This document shows positions 7,466 to 59,898 of a stretch of DNA of 64,000 bases, in pieces. This DNA is from an uncultured Clostridium sp. Its GTDB lineage: Bacteria > Bacillota > Clostridia > TANB77 > CAG-508. Where the stretch lies: the NCBI GenBank assembly GCA_947575605.1, contig CANPNZ010000001.1:69419-133418 (forward strand), given 5' to 3'. The stretch's first letter is position 1. The number at the start of each line of letters is the position of its first letter. The notes under the pieces are model-generated. The model was given only the letters and a program-made list of their open reading frames with translations, was not told where the DNA came from and did not search any database. A program made the translations under genes and the position numbers.

Positions 7466-7771
7466 AAGTTGCCAAGAGGGACGGACCTTTTTGGCAACTT
7501 TGTAAGTATTTGGTAGTAAAATTAAAAGCAAGGAAAAATAAATCAATTTTGAAATGTTATGATGGAAAGTATTTCGTCATTAGTAAATGTTATAAAATAT
7601 TTTAGGAGAATCTCAAACTTGTTTTGAGAGGTGCCTAAAATATTTTATTACATTTTCTATTAGAAATAGCTTGACAGATTAACATTTCAAAATTGATTCA
7701 TTTTTCTGTCTATTTAATAATTACTAAAAAAATTGGAATAAGTTGCCAAAAAGGTCCGTCCCTCTTGGCAA
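7466..7771. repeat. MITE-like palindromic element with GGGACGG-core terminal units
   Basis: Left end AAGTTGCCAAGAGGGACGGACCTTTTTGGCAACTT and right end AAGTTGCCAAAAAGGTCCGTCCCTCTTGGCAA are inverted. The interior is also largely dyad-symmetric about 7610-7630. No ORF. Confidence 0.8.
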
Positions 7772-7824
7772 AAAATGTAATATGTGATATGATAGAAGAA
7801 TAGGAAAGAAGGAGAAAATATAGG

Positions 7825-8673
7825 ATGGATATATTATTAGATGCACTAATTGATAGTGTAAAATTAGTTCCCTTTTTATTTATTACCTACCTAATCATGG
7901 AAGCGATTGAACACAAAACGAAGGACAAGACCAAAGAAACAATCAAAAAATCGGGGAAATATGGACCTTTACTAGGAAGCCTATTGGGTGTATTTCCGCA
8001 ATGTGGTTTTTCAGTTTCTGCAACCAATTTATATGCAACAAGAGTTATTACATTGGGAACTTTAATGGCAGTGTATCTTTCGACATCAGATGAAATGTTA
8101 CCTATTTTTTTATCAGAATCGGTACCAATCACAACCATTTTAGCAATATTGGGAATAAAGTTAGTAGTTGGAATGATAGCAGGTTTTGTTATTGATTTCG
8201 TGATCCGATTAAAACATAAAGAAAAGGAAGAAGAGAAGATAATAGATTTATGTGAAAAAGAGCATTGTCATTGTGAACATGGGATTATAAAATCAGCTTT
8301 AACACATACTTTAAATATATTTGTATTTATTTTATTGATTACGATTGTTATTAATTTTGCAATTTATCTAATAGGTGAGGAACATATTTCAGGATTTTTA
8401 CGTAATCAGCCAATTTTGGGGCCGGTCATAGCTGGAATGATAGGATTAATTCCAAATTGTGCTTCCTCCGTTATTTTAACGCAAATGTACTTGGAAAATG
8501 TAATATCTGTTGCTACTATGATTTCTGGTTTATTAGTTGGAGCAGGTGTTGGACTAGCTGTATTATTTAAAATGAATAAAGGAATCAAGGAAAATATTAA
8601 AATAGTAGTTATATTGTATAGCATAGGTGTAATTGTTGGGGTTATCATGGAATTAATAGGAATTCACTTTTAA
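7825..8673 (+). CDS. multi-pass membrane protein, putative heavy-metal exporter-like (ArsP_2/10-TM family resemblance)
   Basis: 282 aa and highly hydrophobic. N-terminus LVPFLFITYLIMEAIEH and a central Cys/His loop CEKEHCHCEHG. Family assignment is from memory only. Confidence 0.45.
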   Translation: MDILLDALIDSVKLVPFLFITYLIMEAIEHKTKDKTKETIKKSGKYGPLLGSLLGVFPQCGFSVSATNLYATRVITLGTLMAVYLSTSDEMLPIFLSESVPITTILAILGIKLVVGMIAGFVIDFVIRLKHKEKEEEKIIDLCEKEHCHCEHGIIKSALTHTLNIFVFILLITIVINFAIYLIGEEHISGFLRNQPILGPVIAGMIGLIPNCASSVILTQMYLENVISVATMISGLLVGAGVGLAVLFKMNKGIKENIKIVVILYSIGVIVGVIMELIGIHF

Positions 8674-8830
8674 GAAAGATTAGGTAAGAACCACGAAGAA
8701 AATAATAATGGTTTACACGATTCGGTAGGGTATAATAAATCATCAACATATAATGATAAATTATGGTTGTAAAAAATAATAAAAAATTAGAAAACAAATT
8801 TATAAGTGTATAAAAAATTGCATAATAAAA

Positions 8831-8876
8831 CTAGTCAAAATTCTCAAGTAATAGGGAGCCAATTTGACTAGTTTTT
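8831..8876 (+). terminator. terminator-like hairpin
   Basis: CTAGTCAAA...TTTGACTAG stem followed by TTTTT. Confidence 0.5.
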
Positions 8877-8932
8877 CTTTAAACAATTATAGGTATGATA
8901 AAAGTTTTAGTTCTTTTTTTGTTTAATTTGTT

Positions 8933-58181: not shown

Positions 58182-58182
58182 T

Positions 58183-58656
58183 ATGTATGAGATATTATAT
58201 CAAGGAATAGAAGAAAAAAAGGAATATGAACAAATTGTAAAGAAAGTATTAATGCAGTGTTTTAAAGAAGAAGGACTCAACCATTCGAAGTTATGTATTA
58301 CTGTTACATTAACAACACCACAAAATATACAAAAAATTAACAAAGAGTATAGAGGAATTGATAAAGCAACTGATGTACTTTCTTTTCCCATATTTGAGAA
58401 GGACGAGTTAGCACAAAAATTAAGTCAAAATGAATTTACTCATGAAGATATGTTAGGAGACATCATTATTTCCATTGAAAAAGTAGAAGAACAAGCTGCG
58501 GAATATCAGCATAGTTTTGAAAGAGAATTAAGCTACATGATAGTACATGGTTTTTATCATCTAATGGGATATGACCATATAAAAGAGGCGGACAAGATAG
58601 AAATGAGACCTAAAGAAGAAAAAGTATTAAACGATTTAAAGATAAATCGAAAATAG
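58183..58656 (+). CDS. ybeY: rRNA maturation endoribonuclease YbeY
   Basis: Zinc motif HGFYHLMGYDH; 157 aa. Confidence 0.92.
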   Translation: MYEILYQGIEEKKEYEQIVKKVLMQCFKEEGLNHSKLCITVTLTTPQNIQKINKEYRGIDKATDVLSFPIFEKDELAQKLSQNEFTHEDMLGDIIISIEKVEEQAAEYQHSFERELSYMIVHGFYHLMGYDHIKEADKIEMRPKEEKVLNDLKINRK

Positions 58657-58665
58657 GAGGGAAAA

Positions 58666-59763
58666 GTGCATATGAGAAACAATGGTAAAAGAAGTAAAAA
58701 AAAGAAAAATGGAACCAAAATATTAATCATAGCTCTAGTGGTTTTTATTATAGTAGCAGGAGGGGTATTAGCTTACAATATTGTAAAAGATAAGAACAAT
58801 CAAGAGACCTCAGTAGGAGAAAATATACCAGAACCAGTGAAAGAAGAGAAAACAGTACAAATTTTTAAAGGAAATGATAGGCCAATTGCTATCATGATTG
58901 ATAATCATAGTGATGCTTGGCCACAAGCGGGATTACAAAAAGCTTACATGGTTTATGAAATCGTGGTAGAAGGTGGAGAAACTAGATTAATGGCATTATT
59001 TAAAGGAACCGATGCTGAAAAAATTGGACCAGTAAGAAGTGCAAGACATTATTTCCTAGATTATGCGATGGAAAATGATGCGATTTATGCACATTTTGGA
59101 GAAAGTCCACAAGCAGATAGTGATATTAGAAAATATAGTATCAATGAAATAGACGGAATTGCAGAAGATGGAACTACTTTTAAAAGAGTAAAAGACAAAG
59201 CAGCACCACATAATGCAGTAACCAGTATGGCTAAATTACTAGACTCTGCTAAAAATAAAAAATTCAGAATGACATCTGATAAAGATAGTGTATTAAATTA
59301 TGTAACAGATGAGGTAACCTTAGAAGAAGGGCAAGGAGCAATTAGTGTAACCATTCCACACTCTCAATTACAAACCGTAAAATATGTTTATGATGAAGAA
59401 GATAAAGTATATAAAAGATATGCGAGAGGCAAAGAACAAACCGATTGGGATACCAAAGAAACCATTACCACTAAAAATATTATCATAACTTTCTGTGATA
59501 ATTATACCTTGACTGATTCTGAAAATAAAGGAAGACAAGGAATCAAAAATATCGGAACTTTTGATGGCTATTATATTACAAATGGAAAAGCAATCAAGAT
59601 AAAATGCATTAAAAATGCAAGAGATGAGCAAACTACTTATCAAGATTTAGCAGGAAATGAAATTAAAGTAAATGATGGTAATACCTTTGTTAATATTTGT
59701 CCAGTCAATAGTAATGTGGTTTTAGAAGAGCCAGCACCAGCCGTTGCACCAGAAGGGAACTAG
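58666..59763 (+). CDS. DUF3048-domain (YerB-like) secreted/lipoprotein
   Basis: N-terminal TM/signal. PIAIMIDNHSDAWPQAGLQKAYMVYEIVVEGGETRLMALF is typical of DUF3048. Confidence 0.7.
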   Translation: MHMRNNGKRSKKKKNGTKILIIALVVFIIVAGGVLAYNIVKDKNNQETSVGENIPEPVKEEKTVQIFKGNDRPIAIMIDNHSDAWPQAGLQKAYMVYEIVVEGGETRLMALFKGTDAEKIGPVRSARHYFLDYAMENDAIYAHFGESPQADSDIRKYSINEIDGIAEDGTTFKRVKDKAAPHNAVTSMAKLLDSAKNKKFRMTSDKDSVLNYVTDEVTLEEGQGAISVTIPHSQLQTVKYVYDEEDKVYKRYARGKEQTDWDTKETITTKNIIITFCDNYTLTDSENKGRQGIKNIGTFDGYYITNGKAIKIKCIKNARDEQTTYQDLAGNEIKVNDGNTFVNICPVNSNVVLEEPAPAVAPEGN

Positions 59764-59766
59764 AAT

Positions 59767-59898
59767 CTTGCGACTGTGCCACTGGGGACGGACCCTTTCA
59801 CACAATCGTTAAATATAATTTTTGCGAGGTGCCCATGGGGCAGTCAATTTTTTGGATCTTCTCCAAAATTTGCCCTTCCCCAGTGGCACAGTCGCAAG
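59767..59898. repeat. palindromic element, variant of the GGGACGG family
   Basis: CTTGCGACTGTGCCACTGGGGA(CGGACC) at the left is inverted against (GCCCTT)CCCCAGTGGCACAGTCGCAAG at the right. Interior holds a related GTGCCCATGGGGCAG. Confidence 0.8.

Follow-up and report, generated by a model that had tools for sequence, protein, structure and literature searches.

The 64,000-nucleotide stretch of DNA considered here (the window; C1:69419-133418 of a draft genome of an uncultured Clostridium sp., GCA_947575605.1, contig CANPNZ010000001.1) carries short palindromic units with a GGGAC(G/A)G core that recur between genes, commonly as inverted pairs, and that raise the question of what these units are and by what means they spread. 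A first-pass annotation of the window had taken them for a dispersed family of the repetitive extragenic palindrome (REP) or miniature inverted-repeat transposable element (MITE) type, possibly served by a transposase encoded elsewhere, and this proposal is supported by a genome-wide count of the units and by the finding of three Y1/HUH transposase genes. The units are very probably (a rough probability of 0.85) hairpins of the type found as REP doublets forming hairpins (REPINs) together with REP-associated tyrosine transposases (RAYTs), akin to the TIRtron/TIRYT systems with their GGGGWSAS-like motif, and would be spread in trans by cognate single-copy Y1 transposases. The kind of system is already known; it is found here at an unusual density, and in a group for which descriptions of such systems are poor.

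A genome-wide family of palindromic units

The draft genome comprises 58 contigs totalling 1.77 Mb, with a GC content of 29.4%. In the window, the heptamer GGGACGG is observed 10 times against an expectation of 0.5, a number reached by 0 of 100 shuffles, and genome-wide it has 200 matches on most of the 58 contigs, ~185 of which lie within a unit. In total, ~220 units belonging to three or four subfamilies are spread through the genome (217 in a scan for types A, B and C), giving a density of ~1 unit per 8 kb across the three families. Because the family was counted genome-wide, its copies are seen to be dispersed, rather than confined to the window as products of a local duplication. The commonest non-trivial 16-mers of the genome, present in 98 and 50 copies, are words from the units, and the assembly has been broken by the repeats, since many contigs end within a unit. 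In other words, the commonest repeats of this uncultured gut Clostridia genome, and many breaks in its assembly, are accounted for by the family. The units are not covered by any Rfam family, the matches in the window being to glmS and a tRNA only.

Copy numbers of the subfamilies were obtained with mismatch-tolerant scans for types A and B. Type A has 75 copies of the form TGTCCA..GGGGACGGTTC..TGGACA, with the genome-wide consensus ATGTCCAT-tgGGGACGGTTCTtTTT-GGACAT, and type B has 101 copies of the form TGCCA..GGGGACGGACC..TGGCA, with the consensus TGTGCCAyTGGGGACGGACCTTTTTGGCAA. Type C, of the form TGGC..TTGGGACAGGCACAA..GCCA with the core GGGACAGGCAC, has 41 copies genome-wide and 0 within the window, and type D is a low-copy fourth family with one copy in the window. 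The units of the window are the following.

7468-7498, plus strand: type B unit, long-stem variant, AAGTTGCCAA-GAGGGACGGACCTTT-TTGGCAACTT
7742-7772, minus strand: type B unit, inverted partner of 7468-7498
20421-20451, plus strand: type A singleton, lying between divergent genes and 66 nt upstream of where the minus-strand gene 19279-20355 starts
37219-37249, plus strand: type A unit, 1 nt past the stop of a purD-like GARS gene (35919-37217)
37349-37379, minus strand: type A unit, inverted partner of 37219-37249, with a single-copy interior of 99 nt (37250-37348)
37383-37416, minus strand: type D unit, ACAGGGATTT-TAAGGAACGTCCCT-AAATCCCTGT, minus-strand core AGGGACGTTCC
55276-55442, no strand assigned: four-unit composite A'+ A+ ... 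A- A'-, the 71-nt arms of which show 100% complementarity
55276-55306 and 55308-55338, plus strand: type A units of the composite
55380-55410 and 55412-55442, minus strand: type A units of the composite
59775-59794, plus strand: type B left half-unit, TGTGCCACTGGGGACGGACC, 11 nt past the stop of a DUF3048 gene
59873-59890, minus strand: degenerate inverted partner of 59775-59794, GGGGAAGGG / CCCTTCCCCAGTGGCACA

All of the copies that the first-pass annotation had placed near 7466-7500, 7740-7771, 20421-20451, 37219-37249 and 37349-37379, as well as the four in 55270-55448, were located. Of the copies it had reported in 59767-59898, one good left half (59775-59794) stands, whereas the partner (59873-59890) is degenerate. 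The type D unit, which had been missed, and the convergent formyltransferase gene overlap at the stop of the latter. Both 7466-7771 and 55270-55448 are self-complementary elements, in keeping with their description as long dyad-symmetric hairpins. The unit at 7468-7498 is the left end of the first of these elements and begins 6 nt past the stop of a DUF2651 gene (6938-7459), and the 239-nt interior (7501-7739) is single-copy and ~76% self-complementary. The composite at 55276-55442 sits between the stop of a polysaccharide deacetylase gene (55265) and the start of yabP (55466). In the case of the degenerate B pair, the interior (59796-59869) is again single-copy, and complementarity is present as well between the outer flanks, 59767-59774 and 59891-59898.

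Three transposase genes, each paired with one unit family

A search of the genome with the Pfam Y1_Tnp model was positive, yielding three intact genes that encode proteins of 258, 267 and 273 amino acids, each of which is bracketed by inverted copies of a single subfamily.

C3:105924-106700: RAYT-A, bracketed by inverted A units
C36:7405-8208: RAYT-B, bracketed by inverted B units
C3:62314-63135: RAYT-C, bracketed by inverted C units

There is one such gene for each of the unit families A, B and C, and all three are outside the window. The proteins carry NHVH (HUH) and Y(V/I)HxNP motifs, and their best NCBIfam model is REP_Tyr_transpos, matched over its full length with 56-67 bits, as compared with 17 bits (cut-off 55) for the IS200 model. 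When a profile of 40 sequences was compared to the PDB, the sole match was the E. coli TnpA-REP structure 4ER8 (E=2.7e-7). The same structure is the top fold match of an AlphaFold 2 (AF2) model with a predicted local distance difference test (pLDDT) score of 91, having a target-normalised TM-score of 0.71, ahead of the TnpA proteins of ISDra2 and IS608; the matches of the HUH/Y1 fold on the IS200/IS605 side were 2XM3, 2A6M and 2VJV. A helical C-terminal extension (residues ~160-258) is confidently predicted in the AF2 model, and weak matches to HTH_23, HTH_3 and HTH_7 are found in a few of the 40 homologues, with 0 of the three proteins here matching at E<0.01.

The three gene-unit pairs share the GGGAC core and differ only in a few bases that follow it and in two compensating pairs of the stem, and their presence in one 1.8-Mb genome represents a compact natural system in which to follow hairpin reading by a Y1 transposase. 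A fourth Y1_Tnp match (C2:70662-70808, L004) was considered as a transposase of the family and rejected, being a true IS200 TnpA remnant with an internal TAG stop and no flanking units.

Unit anatomy and a possible mechanism

Each unit consists of a short stem enclosing a conserved block, with GGGAC(G/A)G located in the apical part of the hairpin and followed by bases that are specific to the family (GTTC, GACC or GCAC). Two stem pairs co-vary between types A and B, changing from T:A/G:C to G:C/T:A, and these pairs are Watson-Crick in 164 and 152 of 167 distinct copies, as against 86 and 81 expected under column independence. On the sense strand, the stem can be extended by G-T/G-U pairs up to an apical loop that contains GGGAC, and RNA folding gives energies of -11.5 versus -7.3, -10.8 versus -7.3, and -20.8 versus -15.0 kcal/mol for sense versus antisense strands. 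The idea that the type C stem is rich in compensatory changes was rejected, as the middle pairs are no better paired than chance; pairing in type C holds only for the outer TGGC/GCCA and the inner TTG/CAA pairs.

The outer edge of the units is sharp, with information content at background one base beyond TGTCCA or TGTGCCA. No target motif was found at the outer edges, and no target-site duplication beyond chance was found in 38 dimers. Sharp ends and the lack of a duplication are consistent with the single-strand Y1 chemistry that has been inferred from solved relatives (4ER8, IS608 and ISDra2). By analogy with E. coli TnpA-REP and IS608 TnpA, a unit in single-stranded DNA would fold to a short stem that presents GGGAC(G/A)G near its apex, and the matching transposase would recognise the stem together with the core and the bases, specific to each family, that follow the core. 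Cleavage would take place at the hairpin's outer foot or right beside it, by way of a phosphotyrosine link, and the DNA would be rejoined elsewhere without duplication of the target. The copies that survive are mainly those in short spacers right after stop codons.

Co-variation of genes and units across taxa

Homologues of the three proteins are widespread, occurring in Clostridia, Negativicutes, Syntrophomonas, Bacilli and Bacteroidales. At 28 of 40 homologous loci, a GGGA[CT][AG][GT] core lies upstream of the gene and its reverse complement lies downstream. The protein clade tracks the core variant, such that C-like proteins are accompanied by GGGACAGGCAC, A-like proteins by GGGACGTTTCT, and distant proteins mostly by GGGACGGTTC. 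Amplification of the units is likewise seen in other genomes; for instance, GGGGACGGTYC is present 65 times in Syntrophomonas wolfei (control 4), 49 times in Geosporobacter ferrireducens (control 2), and 35 times in Sedimentibacter saalensis (control 1).

Within the genus, 12 of 18 sampled species possess RAYT homologues. Orthologues of RAYT-A adjoin radA in four sister species and those of RAYT-C are syntenic in two, and each syntenic orthologue is flanked by a species-specific unit variant, so that other variants are found at the same gene in the sister species. For three of the four radA-adjacent orthologues, the flanking variant was counted as amplified. The motif GGGACGTTTCY, for example, has 80 matches in sister genome G010, 31 in G007, 12 in G014 and 1 here, and GGGACGG(T/A)(T/C)C has 164 here and 42 in G016.

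Occupancy of orthologous intergenic sites also varies, as seen for three spacers of the window that are empty or hold other variants in sister species.

Spacer after purD: occupied here by an A pair with a D unit, in G033 by a D pair, and in G010 and G049 by a further double-unit element; unoccupied in G002, G036 and G041
Spacer from the deacetylase gene to yabP: occupied here by four A units, in G033 by a GTTTC dimer and in G049 by a GGAGC dimer; unoccupied (8-10 nt) in G002 and G036
Spacer from the DUF3048 gene to ylbF: occupied here by a degenerate B pair and in G033 by a single D unit; unoccupied in four species

Because these spacers are empty in some species and filled in others, the elements are evidently insertions that come and go, and different variants have made use of the same spacers independently. 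The units are of practical use as markers for strain typing.

Inverted pairs: transposed elements or local growth

Inverted doublets of the units are REPIN/MITE-like non-autonomous elements. There are 31 simple pairs formed by units of the same family, and more pairs inside composites; all of these same-family pairs are arranged plus then minus and 0 are reversed, which is the polarity also seen around the transposase genes. The spacing of B pairs falls into classes of ~205 nt and ~50 nt, and A pairs are mostly 42 nt apart. In the ~205-nt class, the interiors are conserved in at least two sub-lineages, which makes these B pairs true MITE-like elements of 270 bp. Composites are of two recurrent forms, A'+A+..A-A'- as at 55276-55442, with 4-5 similar copies elsewhere at 85-96% identity, and A+B+..B-A-.

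A different origin for the pairs would be local growth, whereby template switching or fold-back copying at one hairpin unit generates the inverted partner and only single units are mobile. The symmetry of the nested A+B+..B-A- composites is in line with such a process, as are the three window pairs (interiors 7501-7739, 37250-37348 and 59796-59869) that bracket single-copy, partly self-complementary DNA, and so are not obviously each one transposed element. Moreover, in 8 of 36 elements complementarity continues past the units into the outer flanks (null mean 0.5, maximum 4), making these elements the centres of larger palindromes. Such flanks look as if an element had been inserted at the apex of a pre-existing hairpin, or as if a palindrome had grown outward, and insertion into the loop of an existing hairpin explains them equally well. 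What local growth does not readily accommodate is the recurrence of ~270-bp B doublets and four-unit A composites at several loci with 85-96% identity, from which it follows that whole doublets do spread. Local growth as the general origin of the pairs is therefore unlikely. Examples of elements with complementary flanks are C9:20859-20956, C14:24034-24094, C11:46259-46424, and 59767-59898 of the window.

Genomic position and a possible role in RNA

By a crude map of open reading frames (ORFs), ~81% of the genome is coding; 173 of the 217 units are nonetheless intergenic, and most of the seeming exceptions are artefacts of ORF starts. Convergent gaps hold 22% of the elements versus 10% of all gaps, and divergent gaps hold 6% versus 10%. 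The observation in the first-pass annotation that units lie near stop codons extends beyond the window: there, units start 1-11 nt past the stops at 7459, 37217, 55265 and 59763, which belong to the DUF2651 gene, purD (GARS), the polysaccharide deacetylase gene and the DUF3048 gene, and genome-wide most element edges are 0-30 nt past a stop codon.

Such positioning could indicate that the units are primarily host elements under selection, acting as intrinsic terminators, stabilisers of mRNA 3' ends or protein-binding sites, with the link to a transposase being secondary or domesticated. In addition to the preference for stops and the depletion from divergent promoter regions, 21 of 23 stop-adjacent B singletons are sense-oriented, and B units are followed by a T-run, 6 or more T being present in the 9 nt that follow the unit (its final base included) in 44% of copies versus 8% on the opposite strand. 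The sense RNA of B units folds at -10.8 to -20.8 kcal/mol, as against -7.3 to -15.0 kcal/mol for the antisense RNA, and A units, the folding of which is weak, were flagged by a terminator scan. However, the orthologous spacers are empty in G002, G036 and G041, and the units are thus dispensable in those species. Some units are found in a divergent region (20421) or in-frame within genes, the stems of A and B1 are short, and the T-run of B units is on the inner, element side and may simply belong to the element. A primary host function also leaves unexplained the tight pairing of gene and unit across phyla, and is accordingly improbable. A secondary role of some units, mainly type B in sense orientation, as terminator-like or RNA-stabilising hairpins is plausible from their orientation, predicted folding and T-run.

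Units are occasionally found within reading frames. A B+/B- doublet at C16:23861-23979 is in-frame in a 2,727-amino-acid ORF, to which it adds ..NCQKSPSLLAN.., and a C unit at C6:56802-56818 is in-frame in a DnaE-like ORF, adding GGVGTGTNSPSPS. At the RAYT-B locus, the B unit on the right (C36:8397-8427; L003 2406-2436) lies in a tilS-like ORF between the SGGPDS motif and AHVNH. In-frame copies in tilS-, DnaE- and glucan-phosphorylase-like ORFs are a caution for gene callers.

A third explanation, in which a DDE-type insertion sequence (IS) gave rise to the pairs as its MITEs and their terminal inverted repeats are self-complementary by chance, would account for the repeats themselves, their TGTGCCA/TGTCCA starts and TGGCACA/TGGACA ends, and the conserved interiors of some pairs, but is most improbable given the 38 dimers without a target-site duplication, the bracketing of a Y1 gene by each unit type, and a search of the 58-contig draft for two DDE families, rve and DDE_Tnp_1, that found neither, on which grounds an IS3-like origin (TG...CA ends; no rve domain) and an IS4-type origin (no DDE_Tnp_1) were each rejected.

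Points that weigh against a REPIN/RAYT-type system

Transposition in trans by cognate Y1 proteins remains the preferred reading of the units, and several observations count against it. The protein scores of 56-67 bits are below the curated RayT cut-off (NF047646, 80 bits), and the GTAG or CGTC 5' tag of classical REPs is absent from the foot of the hairpin, where the outer positions of the unit are the stem itself; GACG/CGTC is present inside the hairpin block. Taken in isolation, A and B hairpins fold weakly in DNA form, at -4 to -5 kcal/mol, and singletons have no leading- or lagging-strand bias, unlike IS608-type insertion. The single-copy interiors of the three window pairs belong here also. 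Finally, the unit counts are lower bounds since the draft assembly breaks at units, and in such a draft extra copies of the transposase genes may be hidden.

Relation to known systems

Work on the REP/REPIN-RAYT systems of Proteobacteria is reportedly that of Nunvar (2010), Bertels and Rainey (2011), and Ton-Hoang (2012). The present units resemble those systems, exemplified by E. coli TnpA-REP with its REP and bacterial interspersed mosaic element (BIME) sequences and by the REPINs of Pseudomonas, in being short extragenic palindromes of ~100 copies that form inverted doublets. Shared features also include a HUH/Y1 gene that is single-copy and has its own units on either side, several gene-unit pairs per genome, vertical inheritance of the gene at a fixed locus, species-specific unit variants, the lack of target duplication, and 4ER8 as the closest structure. 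In contrast to the Proteobacterial systems, the foot of the unit has no GTAG tag and the GGGAC(G/A)G block is apical, the proteins are ~100 amino acids longer with a helical C-terminal extension and score under the RayT cut-off, and the host is from a low-GC lineage of gut Clostridia. The REPIN-RAYT picture, worked out nearly exclusively in Proteobacteria, is in this way extended to Bacillota.

A similar comparison can be made with the IS200/IS605 family (IS608, ISDra2), which shares the HUH/Y1 fold, the hairpin ends and the lack of target duplication, suggestive of single-strand 'peel and paste' chemistry. Unlike members of that family, the genes here are single-copy and score 17 bits with the IS200 model, both ends are inverted copies of one hairpin rather than distinct left and right ends, and there is neither a conserved target tetranucleotide nor a replication-strand bias of singletons.

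A further comparison is with the TIRtrons. In the work of Di Nocera et al. (2013; PMC3733652), TIRYT genes, which are RAYT-like, have inverted repeats with the motif GGGGWSAS on their flanks, and some of these repeats are self-complementary and have been amplified, as dimers or in clusters. The units here are likewise inverted flanking repeats with a G-rich motif, GGGGACGG and (T)GGGACAG in place of GGGGWSAS. Types A and B have GGGGACGG, with one mismatch to the TIRtron motif (position 7), type C has TGGGACAG, with three G, and related loci have GGGGACAG, GGGGACGG and GGGGACGT. TIRYT proteins have a C-terminal extension resembling a helix-turn-helix (HTH) domain (Bac_DnaA_C, HTH_23 or HTH_28-like); the extension here is helical, and the HTH matches, all weak, are those of the few homologues. 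Unlike the 'moderately abundant' families of Di Nocera et al., the units here reach a well higher density.

Quentin et al. (2018; PMC6006769) classified TIRYT genes as TnpA-REP subclass 2.1, with a C-terminal HTH, and found no REP-like sequences beside subclass 2.1 genes. Similarly, Bertels (2017; PMC5581495) reported abundant flanking 16-mers for RAYT groups 2 and 3 only, with group 1 also occurring in Clostridia. This long Y1 clade is treated in the literature as un- or weakly REP-associated. Unlike subclass 2.1 as reported, a hairpin unit is present here and at 28 of the 40 related loci, which indicates that a subclass 2.1-type clade does carry REP-like hairpins, the likeness to subclass 2.1 being one of published descriptions rather than of comparison to the sequences of Quentin et al. 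The Y1 clade that is probably involved is one for which the 2018 survey found no associated REPs.

A wider proposal can be put forward tentatively, at somewhat short of even odds. A full REPIN-RAYT partnership might operate in low-GC gut Clostridia and the wider Bacillota, driven by the long Y1 clade with an HTH tail (TIRYT, subclass 2.1 or 'group 1'), in which a radA-adjacent gene co-diverges with species-specific hairpins and a phylum-spanning apical GGGGACGG(T/A)(T/C)C core replaces the GTAG foot. New copies would prefer the nucleotides after stop codons or the apices of hairpins, and would continually seed terminator-like structures.

Other repeats in the window

The hairpins at 6787-6879 and 40424-40540, which the first-pass annotation had grouped with the units, are members of separate repeat families, each having copies of its own elsewhere, and lack the GGGAC(G/A)G core. 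The first is a 93-nt AT-rich hairpin with a GGGGTC loop, representing a family of its own (18 BLAST high-scoring segment pairs, the best 86-92% identical) for which no link to a Y1 gene was found. The second belongs to a family with ..TAACAATTCGGGGGGACCAACAA.. of ~15 copies, approximately nine of which are near-identical over at least 120 nt, and may form one end of some larger element present in multiple copies.

A separate MITE-like family is represented at 15331-15593 by a 263-bp element with 70-nt inverted arms that are 96% complementary, located upstream of the glmS ribozyme (15061-15217, minus strand) and present in at least 9 copies elsewhere in the genome at 90-96% identity. The segment 24013-24750, which follows closely downstream of a restriction-modification gene of the MmeI type (21119-23893), contains two small CRISPR-like arrays in convergent orientation, with a 30-nt repeat (GTTTTAATTTAAATATAGTAGAATGTAAAT) at a period of ~66; there are ~5-6 repeats on the plus strand (24013-24372) and ~5 on the minus strand (24455-24750).

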